In this document: in pieces, positions 21,379 through 33,475 of the stretch
Layout of the letters: the number at the start of each line of letters is the position of its first letter
How positions within the stretch are numbered: position 1 is the stretch's first letter
Virus genome (UHGV): UHGV-1789659
Source of the DNA: a virus
Reading direction: 5' to 3' (one strand)
Length of the DNA stretch: 47,750 nt
The notes under the pieces: generated by a model
Database searches by the model: none
Told to the model about the DNA's origin: nothing
Seen by the model: the letters and a program-made list of their open reading frames with translations, nothing else
Translations under genes and position numbers: made by a program

Positions 21379-22077
21379 ATGGGAATTAAAGCTGATATTC
21401 AGAGCTTATCTCCCTCTGCACTCATTGAGTTGTTCGTACTGGATATGTCGAACACAACTTCAGGGGGGAAGCTATTCTTCCACGCCGGAACAAACGAACT
21501 GATGCAACCGGTCGTCTGGCAAGGAGTGACATACGAGCCGTGGCCAATCAAAGCATCAGGCTTTGACAAAACGGGCCAGGGAACGTTGCCACGTCCAAAA
21601 ATTCAGGTATCGAACTTTGCCGGAACTGTCTCTGCGGAAGTTCAGGCAAACGACGATCTTGTTGGCTGCCGCATTATTCGCAAGATGACGCTGGCTCGCT
21701 TCCTCGATGCCGTTAATTTTAAAGACGGCAACCCAACAGCAGATCCAAACCAACATTTCCCGGATGAAATGTGGTTTATCGAACAGAAAACTCTCGAAAC
21801 TCATCAGGTTGTCGAGTTTGAATTGTCCAGTGTGTTCGATTTGATGGGGGTGCAACTGCCGTATCGTCAGATCATTAAAAATACCTGCCCGTGGAAATAC
21901 CGAGGGCCAGAATGCGGCTATACCGGTCCATATTTCGACAAAAATAACCAGCAGACGTCTATGTCTGGTGCGGATTACTGCACAAAACGTTATGACGCCT
22001 GTAATGCGCGTCGAAATTATTTTGCCGACGGTGTGATCCATTTTGGCGGATTTATTGGAGCTACGCGGTATGGGTAA
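21379..22077 (+). CDS. minor tail protein L-like
   Basis: 232 aa from ATG 21379; shares with lambda L (recalled) VWQG..Y.P.PI...GF, ARFLDAVNF and the Cys cluster CxWxYRGxECGY. Confidence 0.8.
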   Translation: MGIKADIQSLSPSALIELFVLDMSNTTSGGKLFFHAGTNELMQPVVWQGVTYEPWPIKASGFDKTGQGTLPRPKIQVSNFAGTVSAEVQANDDLVGCRIIRKMTLARFLDAVNFKDGNPTADPNQHFPDEMWFIEQKTLETHQVVEFELSSVFDLMGVQLPYRQIIKNTCPWKYRGPECGYTGPYFDKNNQQTSMSGADYCTKRYDACNARRNYFADGVIHFGGFIGATRYG

Positions 22078-22867
22078 TAAAGCAATCCCTGAGCTTGGCT
22101 CTGACGTTATGCAGCAAATCTATCTCTGCGCCATAAATCGCTACCCTAATGAAGCGTGTGGCTTTCTGGTTAGAACTAATGGCGACAAATATCGCTTTAT
22201 GGAAGCGCGGAATGTTTCGGAGAACCCGCAGAACACTTTTGTAATGCACGTTGACGACATTATGGCGGCAGAGGATGCGGGTGATGTTATCGCAATCTGG
22301 CATTCACATACTGATGAATCAGCAGAAGCATCTGATGCCGATCGTGCAGGCTGCGAAGCGACGGAAGTTCCGTGGATGATTCTGGCTATTCGCAAGAATG
22401 TTGAGGGAGATGCCCCTTTCCATTTTAGCGAGATGAATGTGATCACACCTGATGGTTTCGAAATGCCATACCTGGGCAGACCGTATGTATTTGGCGTATT
22501 CGATTGCTGGATGTTGTGTCGGGACTATTTGAAGCGTGAGTTTAACGTCGAACTAAACCCGAACGCACACCTGCATATTCCATCGTGGTACACCGGCGAT
22601 AACGACATTCTCGATCAGAACTACCGTAACGAGGGATTGGTGCGTCTTGCGCCCGGAACAGAGCCTCAACGTGGGGACATCTTCTTTATCCAATACGGGA
22701 AAATGCCTGACCACTGCGCGGTTTATATCGGCGATGGAATGATTCTTCATCACCAGATCGACCGCCTTAGTTGTCGTGCTTATTACGGCGGAATGTATCA
22801 GAAACATACGACGCATCACTTGCGTCACAGAGACTTGCTCAAGGGAGATGAGACGTGTCTGAGTTAG
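22070..22867 (+). CDS. tail assembly protein K-like (JAB/MPN plus NlpC/P60-type domains)
   Basis: JAMM-like WHSHTDESAEASDAD motif and a downstream Cys/His region (DCWMLCRDY...HH); start overlaps the L stop. Confidence 0.75.
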   Translation: MGNKAIPELGSDVMQQIYLCAINRYPNEACGFLVRTNGDKYRFMEARNVSENPQNTFVMHVDDIMAAEDAGDVIAIWHSHTDESAEASDADRAGCEATEVPWMILAIRKNVEGDAPFHFSEMNVITPDGFEMPYLGRPYVFGVFDCWMLCRDYLKREFNVELNPNAHLHIPSWYTGDNDILDQNYRNEGLVRLAPGTEPQRGDIFFIQYGKMPDHCAVYIGDGMILHHQIDRLSCRAYYGGMYQKHTTHHLRHRDLLKGDETCLS

Positions 22868-23448
22868 TTCATGTGCAGCTTGGCGGCTCTATGGCCAAAC
22901 ATTTTGGCCGCCACTGGCATCTAAAGGTGCGCAATACAAAACAGGCTCTGGATTTAATTGAGGCCAACAAGCCTGGGTTTAAAGCATGGATGAAGCGCAA
23001 CATCAAAACCTATGACAGATACCACATCCAGATCACCAATAAACAGGGCCACAAGTGGTCTGTGGACGAGAGTGAATATCAGATGATGGGGCAGTCTGAC
23101 AACATTGCCAAAATCCGCATTACCCCTGTTCCGCGAGGAAGCGGCGGTTCTGCTTTTGGGTGGTTTCAGACGGTAGTAGGAGCCGCTTTGTTGGTTGTAT
23201 CGGCGGTAATGATGCCTGCTTTAGCACCTCTCGGTTTGTCACTAATGATGGGCGGCATATCACAAATCATATCGCCGCAAGCCACTAACGAAAGTGTGAG
23301 GCAGGCGGATAACTCGAACTCTTATTATTTCGACGGCCCTCAAAATACAGAAAACCAGGGCAACCCAGTACAACTTATCTATGGTGAGGAAATTCTGGTT
23401 GGCTCACAGGTTGTGAGTTCTTCAATCACGATTGACCAGCTAATGTAA
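22855..23448 (+). CDS. tail assembly protein I-like
   Basis: 197-aa ORF between K-like and J-like genes with a hydrophobic C-terminal segment; GTG start as called by the ORF track. Confidence 0.6.
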   Translation: MSELVHVQLGGSMAKHFGRHWHLKVRNTKQALDLIEANKPGFKAWMKRNIKTYDRYHIQITNKQGHKWSVDESEYQMMGQSDNIAKIRITPVPRGSGGSAFGWFQTVVGAALLVVSAVMMPALAPLGLSLMMGGISQIISPQATNESVRQADNSNSYYFDGPQNTENQGNPVQLIYGEEILVGSQVVSSSITIDQLM

Positions 23449-23465
23449 ACAAGGATTTTTTGAAC

Positions 23466-26400
23466 ATGGAACAGTTCAAGAAGAAAAAGTTACCGCTGTT
23501 TATTGCAGGTGCGGGTGGTAAAAAAAGCAGCAAAAGCTCCAGCCGTACACCGGTTGAAGCCGACGATACCGTAAATTCTCGTGCAATGGCCGCTATCCTC
23601 GATCTTCTTGGGGAAGGTGTAATTGGCGGCTTGGTAAATGGCGCAAGATCTATTTTTATCGACGATCTGCCGATTGTAAATGAAGACGGTTCCTCCAACT
23701 TCAGCGGAATCACATGGGATTTTCGCGACGGTTCGCAAGACCAGACTCCAATGTCTGGCTTTGATTTCGTTGAAACGCCTAAATCCGTCAATATCCAGTT
23801 AAAAAAAACACATTATGTAACGGTTTCAATCGATAACGATGAAGCTGATCGGGTTCGTGTCATCATGAAGTTTCCTTCTTTGCGAAGCATAGATAAAAAA
23901 ACTGGTGACACGAACGGCACAACCGTTGAGTACAAGTTCCAGATAGCAAATGGCGACTCAACATTTGTAGATGTGGGCGCAGAAGGTGAAAAAAGCGTTG
24001 GCATTAAGCTAACAGCAAAAAAGACAGGTGTTTATTACCGTAGCTATGAGCTGAAGCTGCCTAAGCCTGGACGCGCGTACAAGGTTCGTGTAGTCCGTAT
24101 TACCGATGATAACAGCAGCCAGTATCTCTATAACGATACATGGGTGGACTCAATAGGTGAGATTGTAGATACACCGATGAACTACCCAAACTCTGTGCTG
24201 GTGGGTCTGAAGGTTAATTCTGAGCAGTTTGGTAGCACCATGCCATCTCGTTCGTATTTGGTACGTGGATTAAAAATTCGCGTGCCGTCAAACTACAACG
24301 AGGCCAGCAACACTTATGATGGTGTATGGGATGGCACTTTTAAGCTGTTGTCTTCTTCAAACCCCGCGTGGATTCTCTTTGATTTGCTTACCAATGCTCG
24401 ATATGGCCTTGGTCAGTATGTGTCGGAATCTATGATTGACCTCGGCCAGCTATACCAGATCGGTCGATATTGTGACGAAGAGGTTGATGATGGCTTTGGT
24501 GGTAAAGAGAAACGCTTTGCAATCAATACGCAGATCACCAGTCGACAGGACGCATACCGATTAATTCAGGATATTGCCGGTGCATTCCGCGGTATGGTGT
24601 TTTGGGCTGGTGGCATGGTTAACATCATGCAGGATAGCCCATCAGATCCGGTAATGATGTTTACCAACTCCAACGTCAAAGATGGATTGTTTACCTATAA
24701 AGGTTCTGCGCGTAAAGATCGCCCATCCGTTGCGCTCGTAACCTACAACAACAAGGAGGACGGTTATAAGCAAAACATCGAGTACGTTGAAGATCAGGAC
24801 GCAATGCGCCGTTATGGTGAGCGTAAAACAGAAGTCGTAGCATTTGGATGTACAAGCCGAGGCCAGGCTCACCGAGTTGGTTTGTGGCTTTTGTATACCG
24901 CCAGAATGGAGTCGGATGTAATTACATTTACTGCCGGCTTAGACGCCTCATTTCTGATGCCCGGTGAAACCGTTCTGATTCAGAACAAATATCGTGCAGG
25001 TAAACGTAACTCCGGTCGAATTGTGGAGTTTACCAAAAACAGCATCACTCTCGATGCGCCTGTGTCGTTAGCTAAAAGCGGCAGCTTTATTCGGATATTG
25101 AATCAGGAAGGCAAAATCGTTGAACGCGATGTTCTTGAAACTGGCGAAAACGTAACAAAGGTTACGTTTTCAAAAGCTCTGTCGTCAGCGGAAACGCCTG
25201 TTTTGAACGGTGTCTGGACAATTACAGAACCAGATCTCGAACCTATGCGCGTTCGCATCGTTAACATCGCGCAGGGGGAAACGCCGGGTAGCTTTGACAT
25301 CACCGCTGTTGAAAACAATCCGTCTAAATATGAGGCGATCGACAATGGTGCAACGCTTATCCCGCAGAATACGACGGTATTGGACCCGACTTACTCCAAG
25401 CCGTCTAATTTGCAAATCACTGAAGGGACTTACCTCTCAAGCCCGGGCAACCTGTCGGTAAAACTGACTGCAACATGGGAAGGGAAATCTCCAGAGTATT
25501 GGATCAGTTGGCGACGTTCTGATGAAAACAATGTATCGAACTGGCAATCGGCGCGTGTAACCGAAGAGCAATACGAAATCGTTAATGTCGCGGAGAATGG
25601 ACGCTACGACTTCCAGCTGTATGCGGTTTCATTCAACGGTAAAAAAACAGAGATTATCAGTACCGTTTATCAGGTGTTGGGCACAATGACACCGCCGGAT
25701 GCCCCAACGTCATTAACGGCCGTTGGAGACTATCGTAATGTGATACTGAATTGGGTTAATCCAGATTCGGTAGACCTTGATCACATTAATGTTTACGCAT
25801 CCCAGACCAACAATCTGGATACGGCGAAACTGATCGCAGAGTCTGCAAGCACCACCTTGACACATGCTGGTCTTGGGGATAGCGAAACGTGGTATTACTG
25901 GGTTCGAGCATCGAACAAGCGCGGCATGTTAAGTCCTCCGAACTCAAACTTGGGTACAGAGGCGACAACTCGCGATGTACTGTCGTTCCTGACTGGCAAA
26001 ATTACATCTTCCGAGCTTGGTCAGGCTCTGCTTGAGGACATCAACAGCAAAGCCTCTCAAGAAGCAGTTGACGAGTTAAATGAGCATATTAACCAGAGCG
26101 TCGAATCTTTGGAGGGGGCGGTAAACGACGTTAAGGAAGATATAGCTGAATTAGATAAGCAGTTCAGCGATAACCTCGCGGATTTTGAAATAAAATTCAA
26201 CGAGCGTAGCGATGCTTTGGAGAGCGCGCAAACCGAGCTTAAAGGTGAGGTTTCGGCAACGATCGACAAGGTCAATGAAGCGTTTGAAAAAATTGATGCT
26301 ACTGATGCTGCAATTGTTGAAATCGAAAACACCGTATCTGAACACGATAAAGCTCTCGCTAATACAGTCGAGGCAATAAAGGCTGCAAGAGACGAAGCGG

Positions 26401-28193
26401 CGGCTCTTATTGCTAAGGAAAGCGAGGCTCGTGTTGAAGGCGATGCTGCAAACGCTAAACAACTGGAAGTGTTGCAGTCAATGGTAGAGGAAAGCTCCGC
26501 TGCCGTTGAAGAAATGAAAAAGACGGTTGCAGAGGTCGATCGTGCAAGTGCAGAGCTGACTACGAACATTGAGGCGTTGGCCAAAACAAATATTGACCTG
26601 GCTCTTCGTCAAGATGAAGACCAGCACAAGCAGATGGTCAATAACGCGAAGATCGCAACAACACAGAAAACCTTTGCTGATGATATGTCTGCAATGGCCA
26701 CGAAGGTTGAGGAAATTCGCGTAGAAATTGGCGAAGACATTAAGGCCAGTATTCTGGAAGAGTCCACCGCTCGTGCCGATGGCGATGAAGCGTTGGCAAA
26801 GCGTGTCACTCAGCTGCAATCTAAGTTTGAAGGAGATATCAGCGCGGCGATTAGTACAGAGCAGGAGGCTCGTACATCTGCCGATGAAGCTCTGACGACA
26901 CAGATCACTCAGCTTGAGTCGAAAGTAAGCAACGATATCGTCGCAGCTATTAAGGAAGAGCAAGAAGCCCGAGCAACGGAAGATTCGGCTCTGGCAAGCC
27001 AGATCACCCAACTTCAGGCAAAGGTTGATGATGATATTTCTGCTGCAATACGTAGTGAGCAGGAGGCTCGAGCAAGCGGGGACTCTGCGTTAGCCAAACA
27101 AATAAACCAGCTTCAGTCAAAGGTTGACGGTGATATATCCGCTGCCATCACTCAGGAGCAGGAGGCCAGGGCAAGTGCTGACCAGGCTCTCTCACGAGAA
27201 ATTAACAGCCTGCGAGCACAGACCGGAACTGATATTGCCGCAGCGGTTGCTGTAGAGACAAAGGCAAGGACTGATGCCGATAGTGCATTGTCCACTCAGA
27301 TTACGTCTCTTACAGCAAAAGCTAATGATCTCGAGGCATCTCTTGCCAGAGAAACAACGGCTCGTGCAGATGGTGATACCGCTTTAACAAAAGAGGTTTC
27401 AAGTTTAAAAGCACAGACTGCGAAAGATATTAGTGCGGCCGTTGCAGTTGAAACGAAGGCTCGAACTGATGCTGACTCGGCGTTGTCATCTCAGATCACC
27501 AAGCTGACCTCTCAATATAAAGAGGATATTAAAGCGGCTGTAGCAACCGAAACGAAAACGCGTACAGAGCAAGATGCGGCACTGGCGACTCAAATCACAA
27601 ACTTAGAGTCTCAAACAGCAGCCAACATTTCTGCGGCGGTCGCAACTGAAACGACAGCGAGAACGCAGGCAGATAATGCTCTAAGTGGGCGAATCGATAC
27701 TCTGAAAGCAGAGGTGGATGGAAATACCGCGACAATTCAACAGCAGGCAACAGCCATTGCTGACACCAACAAAAAAGTCTCAACCGCGTGGACGTTGAAA
27801 ATGGAGACTTCAACGAGCGGAGGGCAGAAGTATGTTGCTGGTATTGCGCTTGGTATCGACACCACTGGCCTTTCTCAGTTTTTGGTGCAGGCGGACAGAT
27901 TTGGTTTGGTCAACTCTGTTAACGGGAAGATCACCACACCATTTGTTATCGAAAACAGCATCGCCTATATGAATGGTGCGTATATCAAGGATGGCACAAT
28001 CACCAATGCAAAGGTAGGCGATCTGCAATCGACCAATTTTGTTAGCGGTAGATCTGGATGGCGATTCGGCAAAAATGGAACGCTTGAGATCAACGGTAAT
28101 AGCGGCGGCAATGGGCGATTGGTCATAAATGGTCAGCGGATTGACGTTTATGACGATAACAACGTCCTCCGAGTGAGAATTGGCCTTCTGTGA
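23466..28193 (+). CDS. central tail fibre / host specificity protein J-like, with a long coiled-coil repeat insertion
   Basis: N-terminal 600 aa align by eye to lambda J (YPNSVLVGLKVNSEQFGS..., RVPSNYN...WDGTF, FGCTSRGQAHRVGLWLL); FN3-like segment; about ten tandem 33-aa repeats; ATG at 23466. Confidence 0.85.
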   Translation: MEQFKKKKLPLFIAGAGGKKSSKSSSRTPVEADDTVNSRAMAAILDLLGEGVIGGLVNGARSIFIDDLPIVNEDGSSNFSGITWDFRDGSQDQTPMSGFDFVETPKSVNIQLKKTHYVTVSIDNDEADRVRVIMKFPSLRSIDKKTGDTNGTTVEYKFQIANGDSTFVDVGAEGEKSVGIKLTAKKTGVYYRSYELKLPKPGRAYKVRVVRITDDNSSQYLYNDTWVDSIGEIVDTPMNYPNSVLVGLKVNSEQFGSTMPSRSYLVRGLKIRVPSNYNEASNTYDGVWDGTFKLLSSSNPAWILFDLLTNARYGLGQYVSESMIDLGQLYQIGRYCDEEVDDGFGGKEKRFAINTQITSRQDAYRLIQDIAGAFRGMVFWAGGMVNIMQDSPSDPVMMFTNSNVKDGLFTYKGSARKDRPSVALVTYNNKEDGYKQNIEYVEDQDAMRRYGERKTEVVAFGCTSRGQAHRVGLWLLYTARMESDVITFTAGLDASFLMPGETVLIQNKYRAGKRNSGRIVEFTKNSITLDAPVSLAKSGSFIRILNQEGKIVERDVLETGENVTKVTFSKALSSAETPVLNGVWTITEPDLEPMRVRIVNIAQGETPGSFDITAVENNPSKYEAIDNGATLIPQNTTVLDPTYSKPSNLQITEGTYLSSPGNLSVKLTATWEGKSPEYWISWRRSDENNVSNWQSARVTEEQYEIVNVAENGRYDFQLYAVSFNGKKTEIISTVYQVLGTMTPPDAPTSLTAVGDYRNVILNWVNPDSVDLDHINVYASQTNNLDTAKLIAESASTTLTHAGLGDSETWYYWVRASNKRGMLSPPNSNLGTEATTRDVLSFLTGKITSSELGQALLEDINSKASQEAVDELNEHINQSVESLEGAVNDVKEDIAELDKQFSDNLADFEIKFNERSDALESAQTELKGEVSATIDKVNEAFEKIDATDAAIVEIENTVSEHDKALANTVEAIKAARDEAAALIAKESEARVEGDAANAKQLEVLQSMVEESSAAVEEMKKTVAEVDRASAELTTNIEALAKTNIDLALRQDEDQHKQMVNNAKIATTQKTFADDMSAMATKVEEIRVEIGEDIKASILEESTARADGDEALAKRVTQLQSKFEGDISAAISTEQEARTSADEALTTQITQLESKVSNDIVAAIKEEQEARATEDSALASQITQLQAKVDDDISAAIRSEQEARASGDSALAKQINQLQSKVDGDISAAITQEQEARASADQALSREINSLRAQTGTDIAAAVAVETKARTDADSALSTQITSLTAKANDLEASLARETTARADGDTALTKEVSSLKAQTAKDISAAVAVETKARTDADSALSSQITKLTSQYKEDIKAAVATETKTRTEQDAALATQITNLESQTAANISAAVATETTARTQADNALSGRIDTLKAEVDGNTATIQQQATAIADTNKKVSTAWTLKMETSTSGGQKYVAGIALGIDTTGLSQFLVQADRFGLVNSVNGKITTPFVIENSIAYMNGAYIKDGTITNAKVGDLQSTNFVSGRSGWRFGKNGTLEINGNSGGNGRLVINGQRIDVYDDNNVLRVRIGLL

Positions 28194-28222
28194 TGTAGAA
28201 AAAAATATTTACATCGGTAAAA

Positions 28223-28240
28223 ATAAGTAGGTACTTACTT
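28223..28240 (+). promoter_or_regulatory. ATAAGTAGGTACTTACTT conserved motif followed by GGTGGGC hairpin
   Basis: GATAAGTA-family motif, then GTGGTGGGC-AAGGATA-GCCCACCA hairpin (28244-28268), upstream of the side fibre gene. Confidence 0.4.
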
Positions 28241-28285
28241 TGTGGTGGGCAAGGATAGCCCACCAAATCAAGGAGCATATTCAAC

Positions 28286-31200
28286 ATGTGGTACAGGGAA
28301 GGTACTATCACATTTACACAGGGTAGCAATACTCTGGTTGGTGTTGGAACAGCCTGGAACGTAACAGCTAATGGTGTGTTGCCGGGCATGATCGTCATTG
28401 GTCCCGACAATAAGCTGTATGAGATCAAGCGCGTAACAAGCGATACGAATATTGTTCTCTCAGAACCTTATACCGGCGAAACTCAGTCTGAAGTTCCGTG
28501 CCGAATCATTACGACCTATGAAGGCGACTTAACACAGTTTAGCGCGCGCTTTACTGCGCTAATGTCGCGTATGTCGGCTGATTCCAAGTCCATGCGCAGT
28601 TGGTTGACTGCTCTGGATGAGGTGACAATCGAGCGTGAAGACGGTACAGAAGTGACCGTTAAGCCGCTAATGCAGATCGTCAACGAGCACAACGAAAACG
28701 TTGAGTGGTATAAAAATAACACCGACGCGATAGACGCTGCTGGCGACAAAGCTCGTGAGGCGGCGGCCAGTGCTGCCGCAGCAGCAGAAAGCGCCAATAC
28801 CGCTGGAGAAAAAGCCTCTCAAGCGTCTCAAAGTGCATCCGCTGCGGCTTCCTCACAAAGTGCTGCAAGTGCGAGTGCAACTGCTGCGAAAAAATCTGAA
28901 ACGAACGCAGAAGCCGCAAAAGAAGCGGCAGCAGAATCAGCGTCTGTAGCATCGACCAAAGCATCGGAGGCTGCAACATCTGCGTCCAGTGCCTCTGCAT
29001 CTAAGGATGCAGCCAAAGCATCAGAGACTAACGCTTCATCGAGTGCAAACGCGGCGGCATCATCGGCAACAGAAGCTGCAAATTCGTCTAAGGCAGCAAA
29101 AACGTCAGAGACAAACGCAAAAGCATCTGAAAAGGCAGCCGAACAGAGTGCATCGTCTGCAAACAGTTCGAAATCTGCGGCAGAAGCGTCAGCCAGCGCA
29201 GCCTCAGCAAGTGCGGATAGTGCTTCATCGAGTGCAACTGCGGCAGGAAGAGCTGCGGAAAGCGCGTCTTCATCCGCGACAACAGCTACCACAAAAGCGA
29301 CAGAGGCGACGAGTCAGGCTACAGCTGCTAAAAATTCAGCATCGGCAGCAAAAACCTCTGAAACAAATGCAAAGGCCTCAGAAGACAATGCTGCTTCCTC
29401 TAAGGCGGCAGCTGCTGAATCTGCAAGTTCTGCGTCTGCATCAGCCACCTCGGCATCCGCTTCAAAAGATGAGGCGACCAAGCAGGCATCAGCAGCGAAG
29501 GGTAGTGCTTCAACGGCATCCACAAAGGCAACAGAGGCGGCAGGCAGTGCGACGGCTGCATCTCAGAGCAAAACTGCTGCCGAATCTGCTGCGACTCGTG
29601 CAGAAGCTGCTGCTGATCGTGCTGAAGAGATTGCCGGTGCAGTTGCGATGGAAGACGCAAGCCTTACAACTAAAGGTGTTGTGAAACTTAGTAGTGCGAC
29701 AGATAGCACCAGTGAATCACTGGCTGCAACTCCAAAGGCAGTTAAAGCTGCGAATGACAATGCGAATAGCCGATTGGCGAAGAACCAGAATGGTGCTGAT
29801 ATACCAGGTAAGGATACCTTCACGAAAAATATTGGCGCTGGTCGAGCATTTGGAGGCTCTGTAAGCACAACAGCAGGAAACTGGACTACGGCACAGTTTG
29901 TCGAATGGTTGGACTCTCAAGGGGCCTTTAATCATCCGTACTGGATGTGTAAAGGCTCATGGTCGTATGGCAACAACAAAATCATTACTGATACTGGTTG
30001 TGGCGATATTCATCTTGCCGGGGCAGTAATTGAGGTAATGGGGATAAAGTCCGCAATGACGATCCGCGTTACCACACCAACAACATCTAGCGGTGGTGGT
30101 ACTGCTAACGCTCAATTTACTTATATTAACCACGGGACAGATTATTCTCCAGGCTGGCGACGAGACTACAATACAAAATACAAACCTACGCCATCGGATA
30201 TAGGTGCATTATCAACATCAGGAGGGACGGTTTCAGGTCCGTTGTCTGTTACTGGTGGGTTAACTGGTTCATTGAATGGCAATGCGAGTACCGCCACGAA
30301 ATTGCAGACTGCAAGAACTATCGGCGGCGTGGCCTTCGATGGATCTGCGAACATAAATTTGCCTGGTGTAAACACGGCAGGTAATCAGAGCACCACTGGT
30401 AATGCCGCAACCGCTACAAAACTTCAAACGGCAAGAACGATTGGTGGCGTTTCATTTAACGGAACTGCCAACATCGACTTGCCCGGAGTTAACAAAGCTG
30501 GCAACCAAAGCACCACAGGTAATGCTGCTACAGCTACTAAATTGCAGACAGCAAGAACCATCGGTGGTGTTAGCTTCGATGGCACTGCGAATATTAATTT
30601 GCCTGGTGTTAATGCTGCCGGTAATCAGAACACTACCGGTAACGCGGCTACAGCGACCAAGTTGCAAACTGCGAGAACTATTAACGGGGTGTCGTTTAAC
30701 GGCTCTGCGAATATTTCGATACCAACAATTACGTCCAGAGGACGCGTTACTGCGCTCACAGGCACAACGCAAGGCGCTACTACTGGATTGCAGATGTACG
30801 AGGCATATAACAACGGCTATCCTTCGACTTACGGGAATGTGCTTCATCTTAAGGGGGCAACAGCCGTTGGTGAAGGCGAGTTGTTCATAGGTTGGAGCGG
30901 TACAAGTGGCGCTCATGCACCTGTACATGTACGTTCGCGACGAGATACTGATACAGCCAGTTGGTCAGAGTGGGCGCAAGTTTATACGTCCAAAGACTCA
31001 ATTCCAGGTGTCAATGCCACCGGTAATCAGAACACTACTGGCAATGCAGCATCAGCAACGAAGTTGCAAACTGCCAGAACAATTGGAGGTGTATCGTTTA
31101 ATGGTACCGCCAATATTAACTTGCCGGGCGTCAATATAGCGGGTAATCAGAATACGACTGGTAACGCTGCTTCAGCCACGAAGTTACAAACGGCTCGTAC

Positions 31201-31813
31201 TATTGGTGGTGTTAGTTTTAACGGTACAGCCAATATTAACTTACCTGGTGTGAATACGACCGGTAATCAGAACACTACTGGTAATGCTGCAACCGCCACA
31301 AAATTGCAGACAGCAAGGAAAATTGCTGGTGTGGCGTTTGATGGCTCTGCCGATATAACTTTGACTGCGGCTAACCTTAATGCTTATACGAAAACAGAGG
31401 TAACAAACCTTCTCAGTTCCTATGTGAAGAGTAGTTCTCTTCCAAGCATGACTGTGCGAACTTCCTCTGTTTCTGGTGGGGATATGGGCATGAGTTTGTC
31501 CACATTCATTAGCCACCTTAAATCAAATGGGGCATTTAGCAAAAGTTATTGGATTGGCTTTGGCGATGCTATGGGATTCAATGCTGGCAGTATCAACAAT
31601 ATAACGGGATTTGGTGCTGTAGAATTAGCAGAATCCATAATCGAAGTTTTTAATCTACCGAATGGTGATTATACAATTCGTTTAACGACGTCACACAAAG
31701 CTGACTACGGTGGGATTACAAACGCAATCCTCGTTTATCACTACCGCAGTAATAGAAACCCGACAGGTCAATGGCTTAAATTTGCCGGTACTCTTGGGGC
31801 TACAAACAACTGA
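28286..31813 (+). CDS. side tail fibre protein (Stf-like) with Ala/Ser-rich region and tail-fibre repeats
   Basis: AAKTSETNAKAS-type low-complexity region as in lambda Stf (recalled); eight copies of a roughly 40-aa repeat NQ.TTGNAATATKLQTARTIGGV.F.G.ANI.LPGVN. Confidence 0.8.
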   Translation: MWYREGTITFTQGSNTLVGVGTAWNVTANGVLPGMIVIGPDNKLYEIKRVTSDTNIVLSEPYTGETQSEVPCRIITTYEGDLTQFSARFTALMSRMSADSKSMRSWLTALDEVTIEREDGTEVTVKPLMQIVNEHNENVEWYKNNTDAIDAAGDKAREAAASAAAAAESANTAGEKASQASQSASAAASSQSAASASATAAKKSETNAEAAKEAAAESASVASTKASEAATSASSASASKDAAKASETNASSSANAAASSATEAANSSKAAKTSETNAKASEKAAEQSASSANSSKSAAEASASAASASADSASSSATAAGRAAESASSSATTATTKATEATSQATAAKNSASAAKTSETNAKASEDNAASSKAAAAESASSASASATSASASKDEATKQASAAKGSASTASTKATEAAGSATAASQSKTAAESAATRAEAAADRAEEIAGAVAMEDASLTTKGVVKLSSATDSTSESLAATPKAVKAANDNANSRLAKNQNGADIPGKDTFTKNIGAGRAFGGSVSTTAGNWTTAQFVEWLDSQGAFNHPYWMCKGSWSYGNNKIITDTGCGDIHLAGAVIEVMGIKSAMTIRVTTPTTSSGGGTANAQFTYINHGTDYSPGWRRDYNTKYKPTPSDIGALSTSGGTVSGPLSVTGGLTGSLNGNASTATKLQTARTIGGVAFDGSANINLPGVNTAGNQSTTGNAATATKLQTARTIGGVSFNGTANIDLPGVNKAGNQSTTGNAATATKLQTARTIGGVSFDGTANINLPGVNAAGNQNTTGNAATATKLQTARTINGVSFNGSANISIPTITSRGRVTALTGTTQGATTGLQMYEAYNNGYPSTYGNVLHLKGATAVGEGELFIGWSGTSGAHAPVHVRSRRDTDTASWSEWAQVYTSKDSIPGVNATGNQNTTGNAASATKLQTARTIGGVSFNGTANINLPGVNIAGNQNTTGNAASATKLQTARTIGGVSFNGTANINLPGVNTTGNQNTTGNAATATKLQTARKIAGVAFDGSADITLTAANLNAYTKTEVTNLLSSYVKSSSLPSMTVRTSSVSGGDMGMSLSTFISHLKSNGAFSKSYWIGFGDAMGFNAGSINNITGFGAVELAESIIEVFNLPNGDYTIRLTTSHKADYGGITNAILVYHYRSNRNPTGQWLKFAGTLGATNN

Positions 31814-31933
31814 TTTAGGGATTATTTATATGGCTGTGTGGTTTAAAAATGCGATCTCACAGCCGCAATCATAGGGATATATTTGTGAGTTACCTGATAC
31901 GAATATGAACAGCCGTTAAACGGTATATGTGTT

Positions 31934-31954
31934 GATAGGTAAGTGCATACCTAT
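31934..31954 (+). promoter_or_regulatory. GATAGGTAAGTGCATACCTAT conserved motif
   Basis: GATAAGTA-family imperfect palindrome upstream of the lysis cassette. Confidence 0.4.
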
Positions 31955-32016
31955 AATTGAAAGGAGAAGTGTGATATAAATCCGCCATCCCGATTTGACT
32001 TTTCACGGAGGAAAAC

Positions 32017-32340
32017 ATGTCGAACGAGATGGCGGGCGTTACAACAGAGCAAGTTGAGCGTATTGCCGCGATCGTTGCTCGGGAGGTTGTTGGCAAATTA
32101 GGTAAAGAGCTACGTGAAGAAATTGGCCAGGAGGTCAATGATCAGCTGAAAACCTACTTTGGTGATATGACCCCGGCGCAACATAGTATTCAACACTCTA
32201 ATTTGGACAAACTCCTTAATCGGTTAGATTCCATCTCCAGTGGGTTCTTTGGCGGCATTGTTTCTAAAATAACGTCGTTCATTATTACTGCACTGCTTTT
32301 GGGATTAGCCGCGTATGGCGTAAAAAATGGACTGCAATAA
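32017..32340 (+). CDS. putative holin-like membrane protein (single C-terminal TM helix)
   Basis: 107-aa ORF with strong RBS (GGAGGAAAAC) directly upstream of the lysis genes; C-terminal hydrophobic helix ITSFIITALLLGLAAYGV. Confidence 0.35.
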   Translation: MSNEMAGVTTEQVERIAAIVAREVVGKLGKELREEIGQEVNDQLKTYFGDMTPAQHSIQHSNLDKLLNRLDSISSGFFGGIVSKITSFIITALLLGLAAYGVKNGLQ

Positions 32341-32353
32341 CAGGAGATCAAGG

Positions 32354-33046
32354 ATGAAGACTCCGAGAGGCATTCGTAATAATAACCCCGGTAATCTTGA
32401 TAAAGGATCACCGTGGCAAGGTCTGGTTGCGAATCCAGACGAACCGCGCTTTTGCACGTTTAAAGACCCTGTTTGGGGGATTCGTGCGCTGGCGGTGACT
32501 CTAATTACCTACCACGACAAACGTCGCGCAAAAGACGGCTCAAGTATCGATACCATTCGTGAAGTTATTGAACGTTGGGCACCGCCGAATGAAAACAACA
32601 CTGACGCCTACATTAATGAGGTGTCTAAAGCCGTTGGTGTAACCGCAGACATGATCATCGATCTGCATGATTACGACATCCTTAGACCTTTGGTTGAGGC
32701 AATCATTCGCCACGAGAATGGTCGAGGTCCACTAAAAACGCTGAACACCTGGTATGCGGCAGAAGTTATTGAGGAAGGTCTGCGTCGAGCTGGCGTCGTT
32801 AAGCCGGTGAAAACCGTGAAGGCTGTTCCTGTAACTAAAGAAACCGCAGGCGCAACTGTCACAGCAGGTATTGGTCTGGCGCAGCTTGCCGATGTTATGC
32901 CGCAGGTTTCCGCTGCTATGGATAAAGCACAAGGTCATATCTCTAGCGGGGATACAGTACGCATCATCTTCGGTATTGCCACTATTGTTGTGGCAGGATT
33001 CATTGCCTGGTCGCAGGTAAGAAAACACCAGAAAGGGATGGTCTAA
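32354..33046 (+). CDS. putative endolysin / cell-wall-active protein with C-terminal TM anchor (function uncertain)
   Basis: 230 aa from ATG 32354 (RBS CAGGAG); position between holin-like and spanin genes; conserved-looking GIRNNNPGNL box; C-terminal hydrophobic helix. No catalytic motif recognised by eye. Confidence 0.35.
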   Translation: MKTPRGIRNNNPGNLDKGSPWQGLVANPDEPRFCTFKDPVWGIRALAVTLITYHDKRRAKDGSSIDTIREVIERWAPPNENNTDAYINEVSKAVGVTADMIIDLHDYDILRPLVEAIIRHENGRGPLKTLNTWYAAEVIEEGLRRAGVVKPVKTVKAVPVTKETAGATVTAGIGLAQLADVMPQVSAAMDKAQGHISSGDTVRIIFGIATIVVAGFIAWSQVRKHQKGMV

Positions 33047-33261
33047 TATGCTAGGCAGCCTGATGATAAAGCTAAAAGTTGCTTTATTCATTGCCTGGTC
33101 GCAGGTAAGAAAACACCAGAAAGGGATGGTCTAATATGCTAGGCAGCCTGATGATAAAGCTAAAAGTTGCTTTATTCATTGCCTGGTCGCAGGTAAGAAA
33201 ACACCAGAAAGGGATGGTCTAATATGCTAGGCAGCCTGATGACAAAGCTAAAAGTTGCTTT
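32998..33261. repeat. 88-bp tandem repeat, three copies (two identical, third slightly diverged) across the endolysin/spanin junction
   Basis: Unit ATTCATTGCCTGGTCGCAGGTAAGAAAACACCAGAAAGGGATGGTCTAATATGCTAGGCAGCCTGATGATAAAGCTAAAAGTTGCTTT repeats at 32998, 33086 and 33174. Confidence 0.9.
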
Positions 33262-33475
33262 GATTACGCTGGCTGCCGTTCTTTTCGTTCTGGTCGGCGC
33301 TTACACGATGGGTGGGAATGCAGCACGACGAGCAATGGAAGAGAAGGCAAAACAGGAAGACAGAAAACGACTTCAAAACACAGTGGAAGTGGTGAATGAG
33401 ACGAGCAATAAAATACGTCAGAAAGATGCTTCTGCCGTTCATCGTGAGTTGTATGATAAGTGGGTGCGTCATTAA
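33224..33475 (+). CDS. i-spanin (Rz-like)
   Basis: N-terminal TM helix (ALITLAAVLFVLVGAYTMGG) followed by a charged segment; an embedded lipoprotein ORF overlaps the 3-prime end. Confidence 0.65.
   Translation: MLGSLMTKLKVALITLAAVLFVLVGAYTMGGNAARRAMEEKAKQEDRKRLQNTVEVVNETSNKIRQKDASAVHRELYDKWVRH

Follow-up and report, generated by a model that had tools for sequence, protein, structure and literature searches.

A ten-unit repeat of 33 residues in the predicted helical shaft of a J-like central tail fibre

The J-like central tail fibre gene of the virus genome UHGV-1789659 (47,750 nt, the whole of which we call the window) turned out to contain an array of ten 33-aa units that is very probably part of the trimeric alpha-helical shaft of the fibre. 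The gene is located at positions 23466-28193 of the plus strand and encodes 1575 aa from its ATG (an in-frame TTG is found upstream at 23460); the window itself is, judging from its sequence, an SSU5-like Escherichia coli phage-plasmid. Overall, the fibre is best explained by a repeat-built trimeric helical shaft that is metastable and switches its fold after receptor engagement, an explanation that we hold to be reasonably probable. By analogy with the central fibre of F-type pyocins, the chances are about even that this metastable shaft refolds to a beta-prism with an approximately five-fold shortening and that the number of units sets both its reach and its stroke.

Results

The 33-residue array

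About ten tandem repeats of 33 aa (99 bp) had been noticed in this gene by a first-pass annotation, and the array could be confirmed at the same place. The amino-acid autocorrelation at a lag of 33 reached 0.31 in aa 850-1440, whereas in aa 1-850 no lag exceeded 0.08. The register covers aa 1102-1430 (nt 26769-27755) and comprises nine clear units and a degenerate tenth, all on the plus strand: U1 (26769-26867), U2 (26868-26966), U3 (26967-27065), U4 (27066-27164), U5 (27165-27263), U6 (27264-27359), U7 (27360-27458), U8 (27459-27557), U9 (27558-27656) and U10 (27657-27755). Nine units are 33 aa (99 nt) long and U6 has 32 aa. Scored with a hidden Markov model (HMM) of the unit, U1-U9 yielded 44-60 bits each and U10 14 bits over aa 1398-1420. 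The U10 stretch (aa 1398-1430), which overlaps the start of the Phage_Tail_Tip domain, aligns to the F2 pyocin fibre at residues around 1040-1078.

The repeats had been described as near-identical, a description that did not hold. Pairwise identity between units averaged 47% at the amino-acid level, with a maximum of 76% between U3 and U4, and 52% at the nucleotide level (range 43-71%). Just 35% of the conserved residues shared the same codon, from which we conclude that synonymous sites are practically saturated. Exact direct DNA repeats in the array reached 14 nt at most, and Tandem Repeats Finder reported no 99-bp array in the window at its default or at its minimum score (30), which is why the framing as a DNA tandem repeat was dropped in favour of a protein repeat. 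A DNA repeat search recovered the 99-nt spacing in the form of short matches of 60-72%. Judged by these sequences, the array is an ancient protein repeat, old and diverged, and not a fresh DNA tandem repeat.

Domain layout and relation to lambda J

The protein belongs to PHROG 31 ('central tail fiber J') and matched the Pfam domains FNIII-A_GpJ, Phage-tail_3, fn3 and Phage_Tail_Tip, with E-values of 9e-30 and 7.5e-34 for the hub domains FNIII-A_GpJ and Phage-tail_3, respectively. Its hub and fibronectin type III (FN3) part (aa 18-859, nt 23517-26042) is homologous to residues 2-835 of lambda J, 7-843 of the F2 pyocin fibre and 8-852 of phage T1 gp33. In a BLASTP comparison with lambda J, 32% identity was found over 877 columns (E 6e-117), and the sequence search of the PDB gave E-values from 1e-154 to 2e-124, the latter for lambda 8iyk_J. 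The similarity to lambda J at both ends noted in the first-pass annotation was borne out, with aa 18-859 aligning to lambda residues 2-835 and aa 1420-1508 to 841-931. Between the two blocks, lambda J has ~5 unaligned residues, whereas ~560 aa are present here. This stretch had been regarded as an insert; it is not foreign, and represents an expanded form of a helical shaft that is minimal in lambda J, for which an alpha-helical shaft, then a beta-sheet prism (the central straight fibre) and then the receptor-binding domain have been described (PMC11101478).

The part of the shaft in front of the array (aa 865-1101, nt 26058-26768) is non-repetitive, free of proline, hydrophobically periodic and modelled as a helix. 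Behind the array follows the Phage_Tail_Tip beta domain (PF09327; aa 1423-1557, nt 27732-28136), equivalent to the beta-sheet prism or central straight fibre of lambda J (residues 839-971), with an E-value of 1.5e-41 and a full-length match to profile positions 1-138 of 139. Its sequence matches in the PDB include 8iyk_J, 8xcj_Z and 9wca_J. In a Foldseek search against the PDB the beta part alone found matches, to 8xcj/8xci (lambda gpJ) and 7z4b_EA (SU10 fibre), and nothing was returned for the helical part. The last 18 codons and the stop (28137-28193) form the end of a C-terminal element of ~60-70 aa (...RLVINGQRIDVYDDNNVLRVRIGLL) that is common to T1 gp33, phage DEV gp56 and the SU10 fibre; the corresponding PDB alignments reach residue 1167 of 1172 in 9l9p_S, 426 of 429 in 9ze4_N and 320 of 322 in 7z4b_EA.

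The absence of an extended lambda-type C-terminal receptor-binding domain was confirmed, as no Ig_GpJ_C (PF12421) match was obtained by Pfam here, in SSU5 or in the Yersinia pestis homologue, whereas lambda J has this domain at residues 1001-1132; PF12421 marks the lambda subtype and not the wider TipJ family. The protein had also been thought to end soon after its SQFLV motif, which is not the case: ~100 further residues complete the Phage_Tail_Tip match. With this match at full length and a C-terminal end of ~60-70 residues in common with T1 gp33, DEV gp56 and the SU10 fibre, the protein is not truncated despite the missing domain.

Helix prediction

Monomer models were computed with AlphaFold2 (AF2) from alignments of 55 and 26 sequences (mean pLDDT, the predicted local confidence, 74 and 70). 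Structure prediction, which the first-pass annotation had proposed as a check, gave a nearly continuous helix from aa 865 to 1406 that runs into the Phage_Tail_Tip domain: short helices at aa 835-862 are followed by helices at 865-1056 and 1064-1406 and by strands from 1412 to the end. The model of aa 800-1200 contained the helices at 865-1056 and 1064-1199 and the break between them. The change from helix to strand falls inside U10, so that the last unit is modelled partly as beta and its homologous neighbours as helix. The 560-aa stretch between the lambda-like blocks lacks proline; the proximal shaft has a hydrophobic period of 3.56 residues, and the periodicity power of the array lies at 3.65 and 2.06 residues, both harmonics of 33. 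An alpha-helix rises by 1.5 Å per residue, at which the array would be ~48 nm and the whole shaft ~80 nm long. These helix-only models neither show nor exclude a beta-prism.

The two long helices are separated by a low-confidence break at aa 1057-1063 (nt 26634-26654), directly after the acidic patch QDEDQ. Positions 26613-26654 of the window (aa 1050-1063, DEDQHKQMVNNAKI) thus hold the sole predicted break in a helix of ~540 residues, and they may resemble the acidic kink at which side fibres dock on the F-pyocin shaft. The break was not seen in the other AF2 model, which starts at aa 1050.

A motif from fold-switching fibres in every unit

The central fibre of the F7 pyocin is a J homologue whose helical shaft converts to a beta-prism, and this conversion opens the tail tip and ejects the tape measure protein (PMC12874032). 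The strands that form follow the pattern SxSxxMxxLxS in alternating orientation, in which small residues occupy the S positions and are buried in the corners of the prism; where M is Asp or Glu, an Arg often lies four residues from it as its partner, and a constitutive prism after the switching segment may seed the switch (PMC12874032). The pyocin shaft has been resolved as a three-stranded coiled coil carrying side fibres (PMC13455828; 10.64898/2026.02.24.707460).

We found 16 forward and 11 reverse matches of SxSxxMxxLxS in the array, compared with 2.8 and 2.9 on average, and never more than 8, in shuffled sequences. Each unit has one forward copy, at unit positions 8-18 (A8, A10, I13, L16, S18), and one reverse copy, from position 26 to position 3' of the next unit (A26, I28, E31, A1', A3'), with the pattern small-x-small-x-x-M-x-x-L-x-small; the connectors between them have 7 and 4 residues and are rich in Asp and Gly. 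Among 97 distinct units of relatives, positions 1, 3, 8, 10, 18 and 26 were A, S, T, V or G in 100% of cases, I13, L16 and I28 were 100% hydrophobic, and E31 and R2', at i and i+4, were invariant. Furthermore, U6 alone departs from the common unit length, and the one residue that it lacks falls in the proposed 7-residue connector. With one motif pair apiece, the units can each be read as a beta-hairpin of a possible prism. The period of 33 residues corresponds to three coiled-coil hendecads (3 x 11); the words repeat, heptad and hendecad are absent from the paper of He et al. (PMC12874032), and therefore a periodic construction was apparently not described there.

The array is homologous to the pyocin shaft at the sequence level. 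The whole protein matched the F2 pyocin fibre with an E-value of 1e-154, and a phmmer search with its C-terminal 726 aa gave 1.1e-24 to 25vf_A over aa 1241-1547, running through U5-U10; the same 726 aa also matched T1 gp33 (9l9p_S). He et al. used a BLAST E-value below 1e-6 as their criterion for homology to the F-pyocin central fibre (PMC12874032). The F7 chains themselves were not among the PDB matches returned. The F-type pyocin central fibre (F7 CFP; F2/PAO1 PA0641; PDB 25vf, 9YG8-9YGD) shares the J-like hub with FN3, the long trimeric helical shaft and the beta-prism/Phage_Tail_Tip part, the SxSxxMxxLxS pattern and the pair of acidic residue and Arg at +/-4 (PMC12874032). It likewise has no lambda-type receptor-binding domain, and separate binding proteins as well as side fibres are encoded downstream. 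It differs in that its shaft of ~163-180 residues is not described as periodic, compared with ~540 residues and ten regular 33-aa units here, and in that its fold switch is experimental, whereas here we infer it.

Number of units among relatives

We applied the unit HMM to J homologues from viral and genome contigs. A word-indexed homologue search had returned proteins of at most 917 aa, mostly fragments, and full-length counts were taken from the contig loci instead. Ten units were detectable in the main E. coli lineage, six in SSU5, Kluyvera and several viral contigs, seven in Y. pestis and others, and 4, 8 or 9 in other contigs; one viral-contig lineage (L070, L071) had 11 and Xenorhabdus hominickii 12, and distant homologues from Pseudomonas, Dyella and Stenotrophomonas had 0 or 1. 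Copy number among related genomes, which the first-pass annotation had suggested comparing, thus does differ, from 4 to 12, but it is near-fixed at 10 within the E. coli lineage. With junction-specific queries, 161 of 165 related PLSDB plasmids had ten units, and the remaining four, accounting for two events, had nine. An identical array span was present in 56 of 60 E. coli records (an evenly spaced sample from 168); two of the other four were 99 nt shorter, one had an IS1 insertion and one was a short partial match. More than ten units were found neither among the 165 plasmids nor among the 60 sampled records. The isolated phage Cyrano has ten units as well.

Three independent indels were observed, each of exactly one unit, in register and in otherwise 99-99.9% identical genes. 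NZ_CP027358 has lost one unit at U3/U4, at the shared word CAAAGGTTGA (27019-27028 and 27118-27127 in the window), and the same deletion occurs in the database proteins P0001-P0003. A different deletion of one unit, at the U4/U5 junction, was found in three plasmids of ~94.8 kb belonging to one lineage (NZ_CP081707, NZ_CP081702 and NZ_CP081792); these are ~15 kb smaller than the typical ~110 kb, perhaps through partial deletion of the element. The third event was seen in a sister lineage, where two contigs of otherwise 99.9% identity differ by an indel of exactly 33 aa at the corresponding position. Whole-unit, in-register indels recur, but rarely. In the plasmid NZ_CP020118.1 (E. coli AR_0104), IS1 splits J within or beside the repeat region (window 26600-27900); therefore, some such phage-plasmids carry inactivated tail genes.

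True 99-bp DNA tandem repeats were detected in X. hominickii DSM 17903 (L090:6877-7638, 7.7 copies, 89% match) and in the IMG/VR contig L070 (6976-7643, 6.7 copies, 79% match), which indicates that the array was probably amplified recently in these two, unlike the diverged array of the window. Both also have a separate 42-bp tandem repeat ~600 nt upstream of the array.

Beyond the array, several relatives differ at their C-terminus. In L051-L069, L087 and L088 (including Y. pestis NCTC5923) and in P0016, P0018 and P0024, the final ~30 residues are exchanged for longer extensions, so that 237-335 aa follow the last unit, and Ig_GpJ_C is present in P0016, P0018 and P0024 according to the precomputed Pfam list. 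Shaft and distal tip thus appear to be exchanged as separate modules. A C-terminus of the Tail_Tip type (42-58% identity) also ends giant J-like open reading frames (ORFs) in the IMG/VR contigs L075, L077 and L079-L083 and on the chromosome of Klebsiella sp. I138 (L097); these ORFs have at least 2828-2996 aa, run off the fetched loci, gave no unit with the 33-aa HMM and have a different shaft.

Distribution and selection

A search with U1-U9 among 1.84 billion representatives matched 1751 clusters (50% identity) at E <= 1e-3 and 105 at E <= 1e-30, many of them proteins of 1200-2850 aa. Among the best 139 matches, a J-type N-terminus was present in 35 and a Tail_Tip domain in 65. Unit counts peaked at 6-7 and reached 22; the top match, P0121, had 21 units, including the longest contiguous run of 19. 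The 33-aa repeat is thus common in this class of tail proteins, and the array of the window is rather long but not unique. The first-pass annotation had raised the possibility that the repeats are a common invariant feature of J homologues; they are common, but their number is not invariant.

For 23 distinct alleles with ten units, the ratio of nonsynonymous to synonymous substitution rates (dN/dS) was 0.078 in the array, 0.074 in the hub, 0.124 in the proximal shaft and 0.023 in the tip. These values indicate purifying selection on the array sequence and set array and tip apart from hypervariable specificity determinants. The array goes back to the tandem duplication, long ago, of a unit of 33 residues, and selection keeps ten of them in the E. 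coli lineage.

Gene neighbourhood

The J gene is 98.3% identical in DNA to that of Escherichia phage CMS-2020a and 96.8% to that of Escherichia phage Cyrano; in Salmonella phage SSU5 and several Klebsiella phages the DNA match is limited to the first ~55-62% of the gene. PLSDB contained its C-terminal 2194 nt in 290 plasmids; 209 complete E. coli genomes had them as well, every time on a plasmid and never on the chromosome. Together with a ParA-like gene downstream in the window, these plasmid-only matches led us to assign the window to the SSU5-like phage-plasmids.

As in lambda, J lies 3' of a K-like ORF (22043-22867, with the Pfam domains NLPC_P60 and Prok-JAB) and an I-like ORF (22855-23448), whose counterpart is annotated as 'tail assembly protein' in relatives. 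It is followed by a side tail fibre gene on the plus strand (28286-31813, 1175 aa, PHROG tail-fibre family matches), the N-terminal 149 aa of which are 82% identical to SSU5_021. Among relatives with ten units (the window copy and equivalents in L004-L072), the N-terminal ~500 aa of the side fibre are conserved (84-99% identity), the distal part is variable and mosaic, and the total length is 852-1647 aa. Unit number showed no correlation with the downstream fibre, as genes with ten units adjoin fibres from one end of this length range to the other. Two 21-bp tandem repeats are contained in the side fibre gene of the window (29348-29388 and 29578-29627).

Homologues of the SSU5 adhesin gp22 or of gp23 were not found 3' of the fibre gene (window 31814-33475), and no homologues of PyoF11/F12 or PA0642 were identified beside J in the window, where the large side fibre alone follows. 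The stretch 31814-33475 contains a 107-aa ORF (PHROG 5093), an endolysin/transglycosylase-like ORF (32327-33046) and an Rz-like spanin (33224-33475). Antisense ORFs over the array region (26478-27011, 26057-26584 and 28123-28428, minus strand) were rejected as they had no PHROG match, and an RNA element was rejected since no Rfam match was obtained across 23000-32500.

Discussion

A proposed metastable shaft and its alternatives

A mechanism can be proposed in which the array makes up the distal two-thirds of the ~540-residue helical shaft; the shaft has on one side the FN3 domains, which close the tail tip, and on the other the C-terminal beta-prism. In the virion, the array would be a three-stranded coiled coil with a 3 x 11 periodicity that is metastable, as in the homologous F-type pyocin central fibre. 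Once binding proteins attached to the tip or the side engage the receptor, the units would refold, one beta-hairpin per unit, into a triangular beta-prism, with the constitutive prism that starts within unit 10 as its seed. The ensuing ~five-fold shortening of the fibre would help the tail tip to open, and the number of units would set how far the fibre reaches and how long its stroke is.

Several points weigh against such a switch. The AF2 models returned helix only at both alignment depths, with moderate confidence, and the beta-prism was not reproduced in these monomer models. The 97 units were gathered with an HMM made from this protein's own units, which inflates their apparent conservation; in some units, the forward motif also fits positions 1-11, and the strand register is hence not unique. 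Small residues beside core positions could also reflect the packing of a static trimer. Furthermore, the fold switch is known for 163 residues in one pyocin, whereas ~320 residues would switch here, and according to He et al. such a switch is not used by lambda and T5 (PMC12874032). Finally, phage-plasmids can carry decaying tail genes, as the IS1 insertion exemplifies, so variants with nine units need not be functional.

In the alternative that fares best, a static spacer or docking rod, the trimeric coiled coil is stable and does not refold at any stage; it would serve to hold the tail tip and the distal beta domain apart, for instance so as to reach through the O-antigen layer, and may also carry side fibres. 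We regard this alternative as possible but doubtful. The helix-only models and the hydrophobic pattern of a coiled coil are what such a rod would give, and a unit number that is constant within a lineage and different between lineages with different hosts would suit a ruler. In pyocins, the shaft is where the side fibres dock (PMC13455828), the predicted break by the acidic patch (aa 1049-1063) could be such a docking site, and a large fold switch is not needed for lambda and T5 to work (PMC12874032). However, a static rod leaves unexplained why residues are always small at six solvent-exposed or flanking positions per unit, and why forward and reverse motifs alternate in the way published for fold-switching strands. 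The array is, moreover, homologous to a pyocin segment that is known to switch (PMC12874032), and purifying selection acts on its amino-acid sequence and not on its length alone.

The array had further been proposed as a contingency locus in which frequent slippage or unequal recombination between DNA repeats switches host range or tail geometry. The spread of unit numbers among relatives, the three exact one-unit indels and the true DNA repeats of X. hominickii and one viral contig are in keeping with this idea. Nevertheless, it is very unlikely for the lineage of the window: the units are old and too diverged in DNA to be prone to slippage, ten of them are present in almost all plasmids and expansion was not seen, every change stays in frame and would have no on/off effect, and relatives with ten units, whose arrays have a low dN/dS, differ in the distal part of the side-fibre gene instead.

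Still more improbable is that the array acts as an adhesin that binds a surface polymer along its length and stands in for the absent lambda-type receptor-binding domain. It is long, acidic and surface-exposed, but the same array occurs in relatives that have Ig_GpJ_C or other C-terminal extensions and is thus no substitute for them; its dN/dS is low, there is no mosaicism within the lineage, and published relatives use separate binding proteins (PMC12892993, PMC12312913, PMC12874032). An assembly artefact can practically be dismissed, for although short-read assemblers can be misled by repeats, the 2194-nt region occurs in one piece and at equal length in more than 160 complete plasmids of unrelated studies and in two phage records, the units are too diverged to collapse, and purifying selection acts on an intact reading frame.

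Relation to known fibres and to receptor binding

The fibre can be set beside several characterized proteins. Phage T1 gp33 (PDB 9L9P; PMC11945409) has the same overall architecture, Tail_Tip domain and C-terminal ending (...RLRVQIGR); the same 33-aa unit is present about three times (chain residues 889-984), compared with ten times here, and the protein has 1172 aa compared with 1575. T1 is a lytic phage of the Drexlerviridae and not a phage-plasmid, and the C-terminal 352 residues of gp33 are unresolved and flexible, with a predicted alpha/beta fibre of ~37 nm (PMC11945409). In lambda gpJ (PDB 8IYK, 8XCJ; PMC11101478), the hub, FN3 and beta-sheet-prism parts are homologous and the gene position is the same, whereas its very short helical shaft and its Ig_GpJ_C domain for binding LamB have no equivalents in our protein. 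The coiled coil of Pseudomonas phage DEV gp56 (PDB 9ZE4; PMC12892993) is made of units of the type ExxARxxxDxAL and followed by a Tail_Tip-like part and the same last ~60 residues. This 429-aa podovirus protein lacks a hub and is a scaffold that recruits the separate receptor-binding proteins gp55 and gp54, of which gp54 binds LptD (PMC12892993); in the window, no operon of small genes follows J. The J proteins of the SSU5 group, including SSU5 gp20 and those of pMT1-type plasmids of Y. pestis, are orthologous, with 79% identity over the first ~1226 aa and the same Tail_Tip and C-terminal ending. They differ in that gp20 has six detectable units in 1385 aa and the Y. pestis protein seven and an extra C-terminal extension of ~120 aa, and in that SSU5 encodes the adhesin gp22, through which it binds the lipopolysaccharide core (PMC12312913) and of which the window has no homologue.

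The first-pass annotation had suggested that receptor recognition may be delegated, either to the Stf-like fibre or to the fibrous insert. By analogy with SSU5 gp22, DEV gp55/gp54 and PyoF11/F12 or PA0642, which are carried by the F-pyocin central fibres (PMC12874032; 10.64898/2026.02.24.707460), all from relatives whose C-terminus is equally short, delegation to other proteins is plausible, but the array itself, which occurs beside Ig_GpJ_C in relatives, hardly qualifies. Receptor specificity may reside in the downstream side fibre, which could also be a partner of the shaft.

What the repeat may mean

The fibre is an unusually long and regular case of the known type that combines a J-like coiled-coil shaft with a Tail_Tip prism. 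More tentatively, the 33-residue unit may be a quantal one-hairpin module of a fold-switching 'spring' in siphovirus central fibres, in which evolution would tune stroke, reach and stored energy by whole units. The unit numbers observed are 4-12 in SSU5-like elements and about three in T1, and a metagenomic protein has as many as ~21. If so, the window would hold one of the longest regular springs, with ~320 residues switching and a contraction of ~40 nm, and the natural variants with 9, 10, 6 and 12 units would be a ready series for relating spring length to envelope penetration. If the shaft is merely a static rod, it would be an ordinary structural repeat.

The locus presented here bears on the question of where non-contractile tails obtain the energy to open and to breach the envelope. 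It shows that a putative switching segment can be a regular 33-residue array with one forward and one reverse motif per unit, and that related elements differ by whole units, the number being kept constant in any one lineage. Should our interpretation hold, it would provide a simple sequence rule by which such shafts can be recognised and measured, and it would place the variation in host range of these widespread, resistance-carrying E. coli phage-plasmids in the side fibre and not in J.

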